Origin: a virus
Taxonomy: Duplodnaviria > Caudoviricetes
Length of the DNA stretch: 64,000 nt
Reading direction: 5' to 3' (one strand)
IMG/VR virus record: IMGVR_UViG_3300034073_003276
Shown: positions 2,626 through 23,870 of the stretch, in pieces
Layout: the number at the start of each line of letters is the position of its first letter
Numbering within the stretch: the first letter of the stretch is position 1
The notes under the pieces: model-generated
Told to the model about the DNA's origin: nothing
The model's input: only the letters and a program-made list of their open reading frames with translations
Database searches by the model: none
Position numbers and translations under genes: made by a program

Positions 2626-3584
2626 ACTAAACTCATAATAGATTGAATACGATTTACATATGTGTGATTTTCTTTTACATAAAGCATTGCTTTCTTTATA
2701 TATTCATAATCCAAACGCTTATTCATAGCATCACCAAACATTAAAGAGGTGTCTGGAGAATATAAACAATTCCCTTCCAGTTCCTTAAAAACTTCTTCAG
2801 AATTAGTTGTCCCCAAGTGACCCCAACTGATTGATTTGAAAACTCTGCAGGGGACATATCCGTTATTAATATGTTCTGGACCACGAATGTCAACACCAAG
2901 AATTGATTTTTTAGTTCTAAGAATAACCTCTTCTTCACTTAGAGGATTTGCAAAAGGATCATTATGAATGAATTCTACACCATTCTTATGGCATTCTTCA
3001 ATAAAAGGTTTGAAGGTGCTGTAGTTTTCACAACGTCCATGAGTAGAAATATTACCGCTAAAATAGATTTTATTTTCACGAGGATAATAAATATCTTCCA
3101 AATTAAACTCTTCAGGAAGATAATTTGTTGCCCAAGTCACATAAAACTTATCATAATCCTCAATCCAATATTGGTGATAGTCATTCAAAACTTGGACTCT
3201 GCGATTTTTTCTTTCTTGTAAGTAACAACAAGGTCCAACTTCTATGACTTTATCCTTATCTAAGGTATAATCGTAAACGTGGTCTTTATGCCATAAATGA
3301 TTATAACGAACATCAATAAACTTCTTAACACCAGCATTAATATACTTTGCCGGATCCGGGCAAACGTGAACAAAATAAGTGCTGTTTTTATTTAAAGGAA
3401 TATTTTTATCAGCAAATCCTTCAGTCCAGAAAACACAATCATTCCAATCAAAATCTTCAGGATATTCTCCATCGTGAAACCAATAAGTCTCATAACCAAG
3501 ATGAGTAAATGCCTTATAAAAAGCAGCGTGAATATAAGAGTGGGTGTGGGAATGTAATGGATATCCCCAAATAACGACCTTCAT
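2622..3584 (-). CDS. putative glycosyltransferase (GT-B-like, CgeB-type C-terminus)
   Basis: start moved to MKVVIWG (3584); YVPCRVFKSISWG and HTYVNRI C-terminal motifs resemble DUF3880/CgeB proteins. Confidence 0.6.
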   Translation of the reverse strand: MKVVIWGYPLHSHTHSYIHAAFYKAFTHLGYETYWFHDGEYPEDFDWNDCVFWTEGFADKNIPLNKNSTYFVHVCPDPAKYINAGVKKFIDVRYNHLWHKDHVYDYTLDKDKVIEVGPCCYLQERKNRRVQVLNDYHQYWIEDYDKFYVTWATNYLPEEFNLEDIYYPRENKIYFSGNISTHGRCENYSTFKPFIEECHKNGVEFIHNDPFANPLSEEEVILRTKKSILGVDIRGPEHINNGYVPCRVFKSISWGHLGTTNSEEVFKELEGNCLYSPDTSLMFGDAMNKRLDYEYIKKAMLYVKENHTYVNRIQSIMSLV

Positions 3585-3585
3585 A

Positions 3586-4233
3586 TCAAACTCCAGGATT
3601 GTAAATGACAAGAACTACATTATCACCCCTCTCATCACCCAAGGATATGTTTTCACTTCTCCTCAAATCCATAATTTTGTATTGATATCCCTTTAGAATT
3701 TCGTTGATAAGTCCTTTCATATATGGATGATCACAAAGTTCATCACCTTCCAAATCATATTCCCAGTCAATAGGAATGTCTTCAATGAACATATACCCAT
3801 TAGTTTTTAATTTGGGCAAATAATATCTTATTGCAGCAATTTGGGATTCATATGTGTGGGGTCCATCATCAATAATCAAATCCATATCAGGAAGTTTATT
3901 TGATACTTCCTTATCATATGCATTCCCAATATGGAGAGTAACATCTTTAAGAGGATCATCTATCAGAGACTGTGCTATTTTTCTATGATTTTGATTTTGA
4001 AAAATATCCAAACCATAAATTTTTGCTTTAGAAAAATATTCTCTCCAAAGTCTTAAAGAAGAACCTGTCGCAACTCCAATTTCCAGAAGATTAATTTTAT
4101 CATCTCTAAACTCAAAGAAGTATTCTTCATAAACATCTTTGATATAGGAATGATAGGTATTTTTATCGCAAGAAATTTCTTGCGAGTGGTCATCATACTT
4201 TTTGTCAACATAAATTTCATAAAGTGTTTTCAT
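3586..4233 (-). CDS. class I SAM-dependent methyltransferase
   Basis: LLEIGVATGSSL motif I, DLIIDDGPH, FIEDI. Confidence 0.88.
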   Translation of the reverse strand: MKTLYEIYVDKKYDDHSQEISCDKNTYHSYIKDVYEEYFFEFRDDKINLLEIGVATGSSLRLWREYFSKAKIYGLDIFQNQNHRKIAQSLIDDPLKDVTLHIGNAYDKEVSNKLPDMDLIIDDGPHTYESQIAAIRYYLPKLKTNGYMFIEDIPIDWEYDLEGDELCDHPYMKGLINEILKGYQYKIMDLRRSENISLGDERGDNVVLVIYNPGV

Positions 4234-19237: not shown

Positions 19238-19322
19238 AAGAGACCTCCCTGTTTGTGCTTCTATGAGAGGCATGGGAGGGGCAGGACTTACACAAGGTTT
19301 GGACCCCTGTTGCCTATGAGAG
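19238..19322 (-). ncRNA. candidate structured leader/ncRNA upstream of tRNA-Arg(TCT)
   Basis: follows TTGACT-17-TATAAT (19324-19352); stems GGCA/TGCC, AGGGG/CCCCT, TTGTG/CACAA, CCTCCC/GGGAGG. Confidence 0.45.
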
Positions 19323-19348: not shown

Positions 19349-19540
19349 TCAACCCGCCTTTGCTTCTTTACGGGTTACTTTCTCTTCAGTGATTTCTACT
19401 CTACGTGCCTTAACAAGTTTAGCAATGTCCTGAAGTGCCTTGCGGGCGCGAGTTCCTGCTGCATTATTACCAGCAGTAAATTTTTCGTCTTCTACTTTCC
19501 AAGCTTCAACAGCATTCAGTAGTTCTTGTGATACGGACAT
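19349..19540 (-). CDS. histone H1-like nucleoid protein (Hc1-like)
   Basis: GNNAAGTRARKAL motif in a short basic helical protein; start taken at MSVSQE. Confidence 0.75.
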   Translation of the reverse strand: MSVSQELLNAVEAWKVEDEKFTAGNNAAGTRARKALQDIAKLVKARRVEITEEKVTRKEAKAG

Positions 19541-19584
19541 AATAATCTCCAATAAAAAAAAAGATATGTTTATATATAATGCCT

Positions 19585-19992
19585 TTAGTTACAATCTTTT
19601 GCCCAAGGAGCACAAATACGCATTTCTCCACCAAGAGATTTACATTCTTCAGTATAACAAACAGAATTATCTACTGATTTTTCTAATTTTTTTGGTTGAT
19701 ATTTTTTATCATATTCAGAAATAATCCGATCATACTCTGGAGTTACATCACGAATTGCTCTATCAACATCTCTCTCAACTCTACGATTTATTTTGTCAGG
19801 ATCTTTAAGTATAACCTCATTAATAATAGTTTGTGGGAAAAATTCTCTTTGAATTTCGTCCAATAAGTCCCAAAGCGCATTTTCTGGTATCTTACTACAT
19901 TGTGAGAGTGCTGCGATAATAATTGATAATATAAGTCCTACAGTTATAAGTTGTTTATTTGTTTTCTTATTTCCAAACTTAAATTTAAACAT
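19585..19992 (-). CDS. membrane-anchored/exported hypothetical protein
   Basis: N-terminal hydrophobic segment with AALSQC; C-terminal CYTEECKSLGGEMRIC. Confidence 0.7.
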   Translation of the reverse strand: MFKFKFGNKKTNKQLITVGLILSIIIAALSQCSKIPENALWDLLDEIQREFFPQTIINEVILKDPDKINRRVERDVDRAIRDVTPEYDRIISEYDKKYQPKKLEKSVDNSVCYTEECKSLGGEMRICAPWAKDCN

Positions 19993-20026
19993 AAGAAAGG
20001 GGAGTAGGCAGCACTCCCCTTATATA

Positions 20027-20692
20027 TCAAACTTCTACCACGATCAGTCTGGAAGCATAATCATGAGCATACGAAGTGCGAGCACCATGATGCCCCCAAC
20101 CAATCCAACTATACGCATAGTCCATGTAACGGTTAATCGACTTACCAGGAGTCTTCATTTGGTTTTCGATACGTTGCCACTGAACTTCAGTCATTAGATA
20201 ACGAAGTTGCGTGTGAAGTGATGATGGTGAACCACCATACTTCTTAGCAAAATCACCCAATCCATAATAACGGTTGGCAGATGTCCATTGAATCAGTCCG
20301 TAACCGCGGCCGCAACCGCTGTAACTGGTTCTACTACCACCTTCACAAATGTTAGGAACAAAAGTTGATTCCTGACGAATATTACCCATGATGGTAGCAA
20401 GGGCGTTTCTGTCTTTAATACCACGCTCCTGGAAGAATGCCAGGGTAGCATTTTCATGTTCATTACACCCTTTACAAATTAGCCTTTTCTCTTTTGGCTT
20501 TGGTAAAGCAACCTCTTTGGTCGCTGTCTTCTTATCATCTACAAGGTCAAACTCTTTAATAATGGAGAAAGGTACTTGTCCAGGAACTGGAGGAGGTGGA
20601 CCTTGCATCTTGTAGTTGACGAATGGCAGTGTTGCCGCATTGGTTGTAACCGTTGCCAAAAGGGGCAGGGCTACAGTAAAGAAGTTTTGCAC
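20027..20692 (-). CDS. phage tail-lysozyme-like cell-wall hydrolase with signal peptide
   Basis: ALATIMGNIRQES, GYGLIQWTS..RY..L, QLRYLMTE; GTG start. Confidence 0.85.
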   Translation of the reverse strand: MQNFFTVALPLLATVTTNAATLPFVNYKMQGPPPPVPGQVPFSIIKEFDLVDDKKTATKEVALPKPKEKRLICKGCNEHENATLAFFQERGIKDRNALATIMGNIRQESTFVPNICEGGSRTSYSGCGRGYGLIQWTSANRYYGLGDFAKKYGGSPSSLHTQLRYLMTEVQWQRIENQMKTPGKSINRYMDYAYSWIGWGHHGARTSYAHDYASRLIVVEV

Positions 20693-20705
20693 TAAATTTA
20701 ATTGA

Positions 20706-20768
20706 ACTCTACATCCGTATAGAGAAAGGGGTAAACCTTCTTCTCAGAAGGCAATCTCCACGGCTCTA
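20706..20768 (-). ncRNA. candidate cis-regulatory RNA (riboswitch-like) in the hydrolase leader
   Basis: P1 CCGTG/TACGG plus GAGA/TCTC; CCTTCT-GAGA-AGAAGG GNRA hairpin; competing hairpin CTCTATA-CGGA-TGTAGAG. Confidence 0.5.
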
Positions 20769-20788
20769 AATCAAAGTCAAAGACTCAT

Positions 20789-20816
20789 AAAAAAAGACCC
20801 TGCTCATAACAGGGAT
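20789..20816 (-). terminator. terminator immediately after a promoter
   Basis: CCCTG-TTATGAG-CAGGG followed by TC-T7. Confidence 0.65.
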
Positions 20817-20822
20817 TTTTAC

Positions 20823-20876
20823 ATAATAAGTTAATATTTAGTAATTGTCAAGGGATCCAATTTTTAAACTGGCACG
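20823..20876 (-). promoter_or_regulatory. sigma70-type promoter with upstream palindromic box and nested TAAATA
   Basis: GTGCCAGTTTAAAAAATTGGATCCC-TTGACA-17-TATTAT. Confidence 0.65.
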
Positions 20877-20905
20877 CATAAATAAAGTGTTATGCCTACA
20901 AACTA

Positions 20906-21019
20906 ATGGCAAAGTCGCCCAACAAAGGTAAAAAGGGTTCTCCAGGCGGAAAGCAGTCTAAACAAAATCAAGGTAATGCGACTGCTAGAAAGGCAAAGAA
21001 CGGAGGTAAAAAAAAGTGA
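20906..21019 (+). CDS. 37 aa Lys/Gly-rich basic peptide
   Basis: MAKSPNKGKKGSPGGKQSKQNQGNATARKAKNGGKKK; late promoter ATAAATA near 20878. Confidence 0.65.
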   Translation: MAKSPNKGKKGSPGGKQSKQNQGNATARKAKNGGKKK

Positions 21020-21022
21020 AGT

Positions 21023-21214
21023 ATGCCAAGAGAATGGAATACTCCCAAGCGTGAGCCTTGGAACGCACCAATACATAATATCCTAAAAGCAATAGACAAT
21101 CACACTCAAGAATACTTCAAGAGTGGTGATATTTGGCATCTAGAAAAAGCAGAAATGTTAAGAATTTATCTCACAGAATTAAAAACTTGGATACACAAAC
21201 AAGAAAAAAGATGA
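21023..21214 (+). CDS. hypothetical protein
   Basis: 63 aa coupled ORF. Confidence 0.7.
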   Translation: MPREWNTPKREPWNAPIHNILKAIDNHTQEYFKSGDIWHLEKAEMLRIYLTELKTWIHKQEKR

Positions 21215-21453
21215 AACTAAATTTAACTAAACTCATCTTCATTGTTTGTTGCTCTATAGTTGGATTTGTTGGAATAAATTTTGTTACTTGTAATTTTATG
21301 GTGCCAGGCACAATCAATAGAGCAAATGCAAAGGGAGAATTACAAAACCCTCCTCCTTTAGATTGTAAAGAATCTGAAAGAAGAGGGTATGAAACTTTAT
21401 TAACAATTTTAACTACAGTAATTGCATTAAGAACTAAAGTAGAAGAAGACTAA
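21211..21453 (+). CDS. small two-segment membrane protein (holin/spanin candidate)
   Basis: start moved to MKLNLTKL (21211); two hydrophobic segments; next to lysins. Confidence 0.55.
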   Translation: MKLNLTKLIFIVCCSIVGFVGINFVTCNFMVPGTINRANAKGELQNPPPLDCKESERRGYETLLTILTTVIALRTKVEED

Positions 21454-22064
21454 GAAGACCAAAGTTTACCTTCTGCAATACGCCTTCTTTGCAGTCCTGC
21501 GGCAACTTTGGTGCCAGGATTATGATAAAGATAAAGAGCATCTGGAACTTTATCCCATTCTTTATTCTTCAATACCCTACTAATGGTATTAAAACCAGAA
21601 GAGTTGTAAAAGCGAGCACCAAGATTGTAAGCAAAAGATAATAGAGCGCCTCGTTGATTTTCATTCATTTCATCCCAGTGAGGAATATTTTGAAGTGGTG
21701 GTAGAAATTCTTTTCTCAACTGATAGTAAAGAAGGTCATCTGCTTCATCTTGAGTAATTATATTACCAATCATAAAACGAGTGCCATCTTTTCTACGAGT
21801 GCTTCCCCATCCAATTGTGATTGGAAGTCCACCAGTCAGAGGATCATAATATGCTTTTAGATGGCATCCTTCAAATTCCTTGATTAAATCTACACCTGGA
21901 ATTGGAAGACCTTCAAGAGTTGGTTCTATCTTTTGATTACGATACCTTCTAGCAAACTCATCAAGAATTTCTTTGTGGACTGATGCTTGTAGAAAATTCC
22001 AAGCATCATTTTGATGTGGCAAATCTTGATGATACTTTACAGCATCAATAAATTTAATACTCAT
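21450..22064 (-). CDS. lysozyme, GH24 endolysin
   Basis: LIKEFEG..LKAY.D....TIGWGST catalytic E-x8-D-x-T pattern; ALLSFAYNLG; GLQRRRIAE. Confidence 0.93.
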   Translation of the reverse strand: MSIKFIDAVKYHQDLPHQNDAWNFLQASVHKEILDEFARRYRNQKIEPTLEGLPIPGVDLIKEFEGCHLKAYYDPLTGGLPITIGWGSTRRKDGTRFMIGNIITQDEADDLLYYQLRKEFLPPLQNIPHWDEMNENQRGALLSFAYNLGARFYNSSGFNTISRVLKNKEWDKVPDALYLYHNPGTKVAAGLQRRRIAEGKLWSS

Positions 22065-22753
22065 GAAAACACTCTACCCCATCCAGACTTAGGACCATCT
22101 ACAGTCCATCTCTTTTCTAAGACAGACTTCTTATAAACAGCACCTTTACCATTATAAACAGACCCTGTGTATCCATCATTCAAACTTCCATAAGGGTCAT
22201 TAACAACATAATCTCCAGATGCTGTCTTACCAATCACTACAAGCATGTGCCCACCAGTAGGTGCAGATAAAGAACCCCTATGAAGAATCCCGATAATGAC
22301 AGGTTTCCCATTGGCAAGCTCCCTATCAAGATCAGCAAAAGAGAGATTGTAACTAAATCGTGAAGTAACACCATAAGACGATAAAACTTTCGTCTGGACG
22401 GCGTGATCAGTCGTATCACCAATTGAGAAAACTTTGCGGATGTAAGCATCATCGCCCTTTGGTCCCTGCAGTGTTCCTGGTTTTAAAAACTCAAGACACA
22501 TAGCACAGGCTGATGAATTACAGGTTCTTTGTGCGTCCCTATAATTATCCGTTTGTGGATAATAAGGAACATTGAGAATATCTGACTTTGGTGCTTCTAC
22601 TTTTGATCTATAAATTCTGACCCAATTAGCATCTTCCTCCATCAAGTCAGATGCTTTTGCTAGCAAATCCTTCTCAAGTTGCTCTACTGCTGCAACATGT
22701 TTTGGATTTTTATCATCATAATATTTGAAAAAATTATGGAGATCGATTTGCAT
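22061..22753 (-). CDS. C39-like peptidase (papain fold), probable cell-wall hydrolase
   Basis: VPYYPQTDN, CNSSACAM, GGHMLVVIG, VNDPYG. Confidence 0.85.
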   Translation of the reverse strand: MQIDLHNFFKYYDDKNPKHVAAVEQLEKDLLAKASDLMEEDANWVRIYRSKVEAPKSDILNVPYYPQTDNYRDAQRTCNSSACAMCLEFLKPGTLQGPKGDDAYIRKVFSIGDTTDHAVQTKVLSSYGVTSRFSYNLSFADLDRELANGKPVIIGILHRGSLSAPTGGHMLVVIGKTASGDYVVNDPYGSLNDGYTGSVYNGKGAVYKKSVLEKRWTVDGPKSGWGRVFS

Positions 22754-22754
22754 T

Positions 22755-22931
22755 TTATTCTCCTATGTATTCTAGTGAAAAAATATCATGATCTTCAATA
22801 TCAGGATTCAACCATTCACTGAATTCAGATTGAATTGCATGTGCTGATTCGATGTCATAATTAGACAACTCATGAATACGGTCAATTGCCCAATCATGAG
22901 ATTCCCGAAGTGTCTGTTCCAAAGTGACCAT
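22755..22931 (-). CDS. 58 aa acidic hypothetical protein (MVTLEQTLRESHDWAIDRIH...)
   Basis: translated by hand; its GGAG tail serves as SD for the next gene. Confidence 0.65.
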   Translation of the reverse strand: MVTLEQTLRESHDWAIDRIHELSNYDIESAHAIQSEFSEWLNPDIEDHDIFSLEYIGE

Positions 22932-23024
22932 AATATTTAGAAATTATTCTTGGTATTCAAATCCTAGCACGAAACAAAAACATTTTCAAGCATAAATAAA
23001 AACTATAAGAAAGAAAATATTTTT

Positions 23025-23870
23025 ATGGAATGGAAATATAACGGAGAGGACTTTACCGAAGTTCCTAAAGAAATGGAGGGATTTGTTTATCTCATTACTA
23101 ATTTAACTAATGAAAGAAAATATGTTGGTAAAAAATCTTTTTGGATGAGGAGAAAAGATAAAAAAACAGGTAGAAGAAAAACAAAAGAAAGTGATTGGAG
23201 AAATTACTTTGGTTCTTGTGACGAATTGAATGAGGATGTAAAACTTATAGGAAAAGATAGTTTTTATAGAGAAATATTATATCTGTGTCCACATAAAAAA
23301 TCAATGTCTTACTATGAAACTTATGAACAATTTTTAAGAAATGTATTAATGAGTGATGAATACTATAATACGAATATTGAGGGAAGATTTTTTGTAAATG
23401 AAAAAAGTGGAATATATGAAGTTGTTATGAGAAATAATAAATTTAGGGAAAATAAAAGTATAGCAATGACTGGTGACAATAATCCAGCAAAAAGACCAGA
23501 GGTAAGACAAAAACTAAGTGAAATGTTTTCTGGTGAAGGAAATCCTATGTATGGTACTAAATTAACAGAAAAACATAAAGAAAAGTTGTTTAATTCTAGA
23601 AAAAGATCGGTAACTGATGGTAAAGATACATGGGATAGTGTAGTTTCTTTTATGAAAGAAAAAGATATTAGTTGGAATAGATATCTAATGTTAGTTGAAG
23701 AAGGTAAAATATTTTATGTTGATGGTGGTACTGTAAATATGGAATCGAAAATAAAACACAATTTACAAATGTGGGAATGTTTAGTTACTGGATATATATC
23801 TACAGCTGCTGGTCTTTCTATATACCAAAAAAATAGAAATATTGATATAAGTCTTAGAAATAAAATCTAA
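23025..23870 (+). CDS. GIY-YIG (Seg-like) endonuclease with NUMOD3-like repeats
   Basis: GFVYLITNLTNERKYVGKK; GDNNPAK and GEGNPMYG..LTEKHKEKL repeats; late promoter TAAATA at 22993. Confidence 0.85.
   Translation: MEWKYNGEDFTEVPKEMEGFVYLITNLTNERKYVGKKSFWMRRKDKKTGRRKTKESDWRNYFGSCDELNEDVKLIGKDSFYREILYLCPHKKSMSYYETYEQFLRNVLMSDEYYNTNIEGRFFVNEKSGIYEVVMRNNKFRENKSIAMTGDNNPAKRPEVRQKLSEMFSGEGNPMYGTKLTEKHKEKLFNSRKRSVTDGKDTWDSVVSFMKEKDISWNRYLMLVEEGKIFYVDGGTVNMESKIKHNLQMWECLVTGYISTAAGLSIYQKNRNIDISLRNKI

Follow-up and report, generated by a model that had tools for sequence, protein, structure and literature searches.

T4-like cyanophages are among the most abundant viruses of lakes and oceans, and post-transcriptional control in these phages is barely known. 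In T4-type translational operators (gene 43, gene 32, and RegA), a phage protein bound at the operator blocks the 30S subunit. The regA gene is present in cyanomyoviruses (PMC2984593), and the manA (RF01745), wcaG (RF01761), and PhotoRC-II (RF01717) motifs have been described as candidate cis-regulatory RNAs of T4-like cyanophages (Weinberg et al. 2010, PMC2864571). The PeSLs of T4-like phages consist of a strong sigma70-type promoter fused to a stem-loop (Arbiol et al. 2010, PMC2839356; Comeau et al. 2014, PMC4122927); these stem-loops terminate transcription as well as rrnB T1, and in one subclass the stem-loop lies just after the -10 box (PMC2839356, PMC4122927). The late-promoter motif of cyanomyoviruses is NATAAATA, and overlapping early and late promoters, described in RB49 and S-PM2, have been proposed as a route to "middle" expression in T4-like phages that lack motA (PMC2984593). 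The locus described here combines a promoter/stem-loop cassette with a structured leader RNA that stands directly in front of a peptidoglycan hydrolase gene.

The locus lies in a 64,000-nucleotide stretch of viral DNA, referred to as the window, whose closest matches (megablast of positions 20000-21500) are freshwater Synechococcus myoviruses only, of the family Kyanoviridae, namely S-SRM01 (80% identity), DSL-LC02, and DSL-LC03. The window carries about 21 tRNA genes, and a match to the Rfam abiF RNA (RF03085; 44.8 bits, gathering score 37) at 19243-19279 on the minus strand forms the head of a large tRNA array, just past a TTGACT-17-TATAAT promoter at 19352. The gene that follows the leader (20027-20692, minus strand; GUG start at 20692-20690) encodes a 221-aa member of phrog_512 that combines a hydrophobic N-terminal segment with a phage tail lysozyme domain (PF18013, E 1.5e-17), and its homologues are annotated in isolates as cyanophage "gp214", "tail tip lysozyme", or "virion structural protein". 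The lysozyme is predicted to be exported, to judge by its N-terminal sequence alone. The GUG start agrees with the homologues, since an ATG or GTG is found 10-12 nt past a conserved UUC in 191 of the 193 freshwater loci listed. A co-conserved gp215-like gene (19585-19992, minus strand; phrog_3316) lies 3' of the lysozyme gene, and its product, which has no Pfam match, shows a basic N-terminus, a hydrophobic (membrane) segment, and a lipobox-like ...AALSQC (LSQC) sequence; it may be a lipoprotein partner of the exported hydrolase. Between the two genes, a 10-bp GC-rich hairpin, AAGGGGAGUG...CUCCCCUU, with a U-rich tail occupies 19997-20021 on the minus strand.

Upstream of the leader and on the same strand, the window encodes a PF00959 T4-type lysozyme (21450-22064) and a C39-like cysteine peptidase (22061-22753), the counterparts of which are annotated as endolysins in S-SRM01. 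The enzyme behind the leader is thus a third, separate hydrolase. Three small genes on the opposite strand separate the leader from this upstream pair, so that the leader region is a divergent intergenic region. A 37-aa lysine-rich ORF (MAKSPNKGKKGS...GGKKK) at 20906-21019 on the plus strand, opposite to the leader, has a late-type ATAAATA box beside it at 20878-20884 and is conserved, though unannotated, in S-SRM01 (about 3490-3590 of that locus, L001, on its minus strand); it is followed by an ORF at 21023-21214 (plus strand) with a GGAGG Shine-Dalgarno sequence.

The leader RNA extends over 81 nt (20690-20770; this and all following leader coordinates refer to the minus strand) and is matched as a whole by the covariance model R1 with 105.6 bits (E 5.8e-26). 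It begins with a 5' single-stranded arm, UUUAGAG (20764-20770), in which the family consensus is a G-A/U-G triplet directly 5' of the first stem. Stem P1 pairs CCGUG (20763-20759) with UACGG (20719-20715), and P1b pairs GAGA (20758-20755) with UCUC (20725-20722); the 5' strands of the two stems run on directly (20755-20763), and the 3' strands (20715-20725) are parted by an invariant UA bulge. The two stems enclose the P2 hairpin GCCUUCU-GAGA-AGAAGGU (20735-20752; strands 20752-20746 and 20741-20735), which is capped by a GNRA loop, GAGA, at 20745-20742, and an unpaired asymmetric internal loop, UUACCCCUU, at 20726-20734. P1 is followed by a 3' single-stranded arm, AUGUAGAGUUC (20704-20714; family consensus AUG-NN-GA-R-UUC), and by an AU-rich spacer, AAUUAAAUUUA (20693-20703), which contains RAUUW-like words and has no Shine-Dalgarno sequence; no GGAG, GAGG, or AGGA occurs within 20 nt of the GUG start. 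A further conserved box, UUAUGAGUCUUUGA (consensus UUAUGAGAnUUUGA), is located at 20777-20790, 21-23 nt before AGAGCC.

In the single-sequence centroid fold, the hairpin is the only robust part, and pairing of the start region is weak. The P2 loop is GAGA in nearly all sequences, with GAAA or AAAA in a few, and the unpaired nucleotides that are invariant in the freshwater form are the UG before P2, the UA bulge, and the GAGA loop. The internal loop occurs in the freshwater clade as three discrete, internally conserved types, NUACCCC, AACUUCUCC, and AAGUGCGC. The types are freely mixed with differing P1b and P2 strands and with both kinds of downstream gene; a pairing partner (pseudoknot) was sought for all three types without success.

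Copies of the leader were collected from IMG/VR loci that encode relatives of the protein, together with loci that contain a 17-mer from the element, giving at least 193 freshwater-type copies with 71 distinct cores. Model R1, which was built on a gap-free seed of 30 sequences, finds exactly one match per locus in 100 of 100 freshwater loci over 659 kb (68-109 bits), and a single significant match in the 64-kb window, where the next best match has an E value of 0.07. Across 94 distinct freshwater rows, 97.0% of the cells are paired versus 83.8% in shuffles, nine of the 15 pairs change on both sides (235 cells), and pairing falls to 44-63% when the 3' partners are slid by 1-3 columns. The pairs of P1 vary as GC/CG/UA and UA/AU, those of P1b as AU/GC and AU/GC/CG/UA, and four pairs of P2 change on both sides. 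One pair is G-U in 89 of the 94 rows and would be C-A on the other strand, so the fold belongs to the mRNA-sense strand rather than to the DNA. Compensatory changes are also visible by eye in S-SRM01, DSL-LC03, and DSL-LC02, where the P1 strands CCGUG/UACGG are exchanged for CCCAG/UUGGG, the P1b strands GAGA/UCUC for GGUA/UACC or GAAAG/CUUUC, and the P2 strands CCUUCU/AGAAGG for CCCCUU/AAGGGG.

A scan of the whole window against Rfam 15, in which ydaO/c-di-AMP, c-di-GMP, glnA, manA, wcaG, and PhotoRC are represented, placed no family at the leader by gathering thresholds, and a relaxed search of 20500-21100, at E values up to 10, returned no relevant family, only four chance-level matches (E 1.8-8) to unrelated families. 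A 20-mer from the element had no match in 596 Gb of bacterial and archaeal genomes. The element is almost certainly a genuine, conserved, cis-acting structured leader RNA, and it represents a previously uncatalogued family without an Rfam entry. The first-pass annotation had correctly placed the promoter, the hairpin with its U7 tract, stems P1, P1b, and P2, the GAGA loop, and the unpaired segment on the minus strand. Its proposal of a structured leader of no known class is borne out by the Rfam scan and by covariation in 94 freshwater and 53 marine or estuarine distinct sequences; a lack of covariation among homologues, which it had named as grounds for giving up the proposal, was not what the alignments revealed, covariation being abundant.

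The family extends beyond fresh water. The protein family is also found in marine cyanomyoviruses at about 50% identity, and an R1 match that ends exactly at the start codon is present in S-RSM4, S-RIM8, and S-CAM7, and in 55 of 66 marine or estuarine IMG/VR loci. In 53 distinct sequences of this set, 94.2% of the cells are paired, as compared with 74.9% after shuffling, and both partners have changed in 13 pairs, with P1 variants such as CCGU/ACGG, CCAC(C)/(G)GUGG, UCGU/ACGA, and CUACC/GGUAG. Conserved throughout the family are the G-A/U-G triplet 5' of P1, P1 itself, the AUG-NN-GA-R-UUC arm, and an AU-rich spacer of about 10-11 nt to the start codon. The inner hairpin of the marine forms is a plain stem-loop of variable sequence, and the architecture of P1b, asymmetric loop, and GAGA-capped P2 is the version of the freshwater clade, which a few estuarine loci share. 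In S-CAM7 (L205, NC_031927), the leader match (554-610) lies inside an annotated coding sequence that starts at 509 (509-610), which suggests that the annotated start of this homologue is too far upstream and that the true start is near 608.

The leader is associated with two unrelated hydrolases. The downstream product is a homologue of the window lysozyme in 182 of the 189 listed copies that were scored (ORFs of at least 60 residues); in the other seven, the leader precedes a 120-aa DPBB_1/RlpA-type lytic transglycosylase (PF03330, E ~1e-22) that carries a classical signal peptide and shares no homology with the PF18013 lysozyme. R1 scores 81-106 bits for the leaders of the four DPBB loci, out of seven, that its search covered, and behind the DPBB gene stands the same gp215-like gene that the window has. 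The DPBB loci, which include L109:584-943(-), L138:2357-2716(+), L161:10149-10508(-), L162:6514-6873(-), and L154:489-848(-), show a non-orthologous gene replacement, flanked by the conserved leader on one side and the gp215-like gene on the other. They also carry, at the same place, equivalents of the hairpin that in the window stops 5 nt short of the gp215-like ATG. The occurrence of the leader before two unrelated enzymes links it to the function of an exported murein-cleaving enzyme and not to one protein family, so that the association with a cell-wall hydrolase proposed in the first reading of the locus holds for exported peptidoglycan hydrolases of two unrelated folds. The leader is independent of the coding sequence, and the linkage to two unrelated enzymes could instead reflect cassette replacement between conserved flanks.

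Evidence at the RNA level comes from Logan contigs of relatives in metatranscriptome libraries, from which transcript starts and ends cannot be read. Several of these contigs (records 6, 16, 21, and 22) bridge the start codon and the element, which fits a transcribed leader, with DNA carry-over as a possible source; a transcription start downstream of the element, which had been put forward as a result that would overturn the proposal, is not what these contigs indicate. Positions 20814-20887 are covered by no RNA run, and two contigs from different studies stop near 20781; as signs of a 5' end past the U tract, the gap and the stops are at most weak hints, and they were not used as evidence.

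The promoter/stem-loop cassette precedes the leader on the same strand, at 20789-20851. Its promoter consists of a sigma70-type (early) -35 hexamer, TTGACA (20846-20851), and a -10 hexamer, TATTAT (20823-20828), spaced by 17 nt; this combination matches 11 of 12 positions and is the top sigma70-like site within 19500-23500. A CTAAATA box that resembles a T4-type late promoter is nested in the spacer (20835-20841), where the window motif, ACTAAATA, differs by one mismatch from the cyanophage motif and the S-SRM01 motif reads AATAAATA. Starting 8 nt past TATTAT, the hairpin CCCUG-UUAUGAG-CAGGG (20814-20798) is followed by UCUUUUUUU (20797-20789), and together with an A5 tract upstream and the U7 tract downstream it makes up a terminator-like unit at 20789-20820. 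This unit combines a GC-rich hairpin with a direct U tract in the manner of an intrinsic terminator (seven pairs, four of them G-C, and the tail UCUUUUUUUA) and is called terminator-like on the minus strand, with a weaker call on the plus strand because the A tract lies upstream of the hairpin.

The cassette recurs among the relatives. An [ACT]TAAATA box followed by a -10 box is found in 126 of 130 distinct upstream regions and a -35-like box in 112 of 130; the hairpin lies just past the -10 box in 110 of the 112 loci with a -35 box and in eight of the 14 loci that have the late-type box only. The hairpin varies in sequence and keeps its pairing (CCCUG/CAGGG, CCCACC/GGUGGG, AUUCAC/GUGAAU, and CCCGAUAC/GUGUCGGG), and hairpin sequences have been exchanged between otherwise similar loci. 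Most of the hairpins have an A tract on one side and a U tract on the other, as in the window, and therefore read as bidirectional terminators. In two loci the leader lies directly behind a tRNA gene, and S-RSM4, in which leader and preceding gene overlap at the 3' end of that gene, has neither promoter nor terminator.

With a near-consensus sigma70 promoter to which a stem-loop is fused, the module at 20789-20851 fits a PeSL-like promoter/stem-loop cassette, a type known in T4-like phages. As in PeSLs, a stable stem-loop of the terminator or attenuator type sits on a strong promoter between genes in a plastic region of the genome, the hairpin of the window begins 8 nt after TATTAT, and the hairpin sequence is swapped across loci while the promoter is kept. 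The cassette differs from PeSLs in that its promoter also has a nested late-type CTAAATA box and its stem-loop has a full U7 tail, and in that transcripts of this promoter would contain the whole hairpin if they began about 7 nt past the -10 box. PeSLs were defined in coliphage and vibriophage relatives. That the window cassette may also terminate transcription and mediate modular shuffling is hinted at indirectly by the exchange of hairpin sequences between loci and by the replaced hydrolase gene of the seven DPBB loci. The module would insulate the gene from outside and antisense transcription, and its hairpin may throttle transcripts begun at the host-type promoter; it is not governed by the leader RNA downstream of it. 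The promoter/terminator part of the locus appears to extend the PeSL concept to freshwater cyanomyoviruses.

The terminator had also been taken as part of a riboswitch. This assignment fails, since the cassette cannot be the expression platform of the leader RNA when its hairpin lies 5' of the folded element, and the terminator is missing in some loci that keep the leader and in those marine relatives whose leader overlaps the end of the upstream gene. The alternative hairpin CUCUAUA-CGGA-UGUAGAG, proposed as one of two mutually exclusive folds, can indeed be drawn in the window, and as a conserved exclusive fold it finds no covariation: 88.9% of its cells are paired versus 89.0% in shuffles, no pair changes on both sides, and the 71 cells in which it fails to pair are precisely those of the P1 and P1b covariation.

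Several other readings were tried and set aside. The UUAUGAGAnUUUGA box forms local hairpins in individual sequences, but a two-sided anchored mutual-information scan gave no Watson-Crick-consistent pairs for a helix around it. No helix was found with the start region or with the coding sequence, the 5' end of which is wholly different in the DPBB loci; for the same reason, and through the lack of compensation in DSL-LC02, a pairing of GUAGAG with CUUUAC in the coding region was rejected. A mini-ORF, AUG-AGN-NNN-UGA, is contradicted by conservation of the G of its AUG below 90% and by AUU and AUA variants. The invariant AUG after P1 was rejected as the true start, because UAG follows it in the freshwater clade and stops follow in many marine loci; S-RSM4 and S-RIM8 do have an open, in-frame AUG at this place, and conservation over this region is not codon-like. 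A K-turn or sarcin-ricin internal loop lacks the required GA/AG positions on inspection, and the tail motif, with a single occurrence in the window, was discarded as a general signal to the ribosome.

The leader is tentatively read, at a little under an even chance, as a gene-specific translational operator or enhancer that would be bound by a trans-acting factor and would act on translation. This reading starts from the observed fold, conservation, fixed position, gene specificity, and two-hydrolase link. In such an operator, the irregular long hairpin, consisting of P1, P1b, the asymmetric loop, and the GNRA-capped P2, clamps together the 5' arm UUAGAG and the 3' arm AUGUAGAGUUC, both unpaired and almost invariant. 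The clamped arms lie directly upstream of the AU-rich, Shine-Dalgarno-less ribosome-binding region, and their distance to the start codon is constant at 21-22 nt. The trans-acting factor would recognise these arms and thereby set the amount and timing of the exported murein hydrolase. It is most likely a protein, and the candidates are a phage translational repressor of the RegA kind and the 30S subunit with S1. The operator reading is favoured because the specific sequence lies in the arms beside the ribosome site, as it does in protein-bound operators, and because the stem-held arms abut a Shine-Dalgarno-less AU-rich site at a fixed distance before one gene per genome. Across proteins of about 50% identity, G-W-G, P1, AUG-NN-GA-R-UUC, and the AU-rich spacer are all that is left of the conserved core, and the inner hairpin varies freely. 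Against an operator, the window yielded no further site for the candidate factor, an unusual situation for regulators of the RegA type, which control many mRNAs; the invariant loop and bulge elaboration of the freshwater form is more typical of tertiary-folded aptamers, and two unrelated enzymes of the same function form a pattern that is usually taken for a riboswitch.

The same fixed distance between a stable hairpin and a Shine-Dalgarno-less AU-rich spacer would also be expected of a constitutive structural element, in which the 5' hairpin would protect the mRNA against 5'-end-dependent decay and keep the AU-rich region single-stranded, so that the leader would enhance translation independently of a Shine-Dalgarno sequence, with the 30S subunit and S1 as its readers. 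The rpsA leader of E. coli, which is also Shine-Dalgarno-less, provides a comparison for this enhancer. The free variation of the hairpin interior in marine forms and the single-sequence fold, in which the hairpin is robust and the start region weakly paired, are both in its favour. However, an element read by the ribosome should recur, whereas the window and every contig contain a single leader, and the invariance of AUG-NN-GA-R-UUC across deep divergence exceeds what a spacer or stabiliser needs; a purely constitutive role is rated as rather doubtful.

A new class of metabolite- or second-messenger riboswitch, in which the ligand-bound fold of P1 and the arms would expose or mask the Shine-Dalgarno-less site and the synthesis of the hydrolase would be timed by the state of the infected cell, is unlikely. 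Covarying stems with conserved unpaired nucleotides in a 5' leader are what a riboswitch would generally present, and here the covariation is strong, the invariant unpaired nucleotides of the freshwater form are many, the element abuts the start codon, the same motif precedes two unrelated murein hydrolases, and no known RNA family matches. These points are countered by the search for an expression platform, which found no conserved alternative fold, the sole candidate hairpin failing on covariation, no helix with the upstream box, and a terminator only upstream of the element. Moreover, the large internal loop, which would be the natural site of a pocket, consists of three unrelated sequences, and the marine form is a plain hairpin with variable loops, so that a pocket would need to be built from P1 and the arms alone. 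A broader proposal, that the leader is a phage-specific riboswitch aptamer or regulator operator that senses a signal of infection state or envelope and licenses murein hydrolases, is held to be equally unlikely. If such sensing were true, the leader would constitute a post-transcriptional checkpoint for wall remodelling or lysis, common to freshwater and marine T4-like cyanophages.

Very unlikely, and the least probable of the four, is an RNase processing signal, in which the hairpin would position the host RNase E, an enzyme that some cyanophages raise in level during infection, on the AAUUA/AAUUU (RAUUW-like) words before the start codon and timed cleavage would inactivate or mature the mRNA. 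RAUUW words beside stem-loops, as defined on T4 mRNAs, count in favour of this signal, as do the position of AAUUAAAUUUA directly 3' of the hairpin and the conservation of the AU-rich spacer from freshwater to marine forms. A cyanophage factor reported to induce host RNase E (PMC9692554) also counts for it, but AU-rich words are common in this genome of 37-40% GC, and the invariant AUG, GA, and UUC and the 5' arm would be left unexplained.

The leader marks a dedicated control point for the output of a wall hydrolase, which bears on entry, wall remodelling, or lysis timing in phage-host systems of global importance. It is widespread, with at least 190 freshwater-type copies and a reduced form in most marine relatives, and at 60-81 nt it is a compact target for probing, reporters, and pull-downs. 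Among known RNAs, ydaO/c-di-AMP and other riboswitches upstream of hydrolases resemble it as structured leaders before peptidoglycan-remodelling enzymes; in contrast to ydaO, the leader is far smaller, matches no family, and has neither a pseudo-two-fold architecture nor an expression platform. The manA, wcaG, and PhotoRC-II RNAs are, like the leader, covariation-supported 5'-leader motifs, mostly of metagenomic origin, with effectors unassigned (PMC2864571), and the leader differs from them in its lack of an Rfam match, its linkage to murein hydrolases, and its fold. The T4-type operators share no sequence similarity with the leader, the gene of which encodes an exported wall hydrolase and not a replication protein, and RegA acts on many targets, unlike the single-copy leader. 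The arrangement is nevertheless alike: next to or over the start codon lies a conserved, unpaired, AU-rich segment behind a hairpin or pseudoknot.
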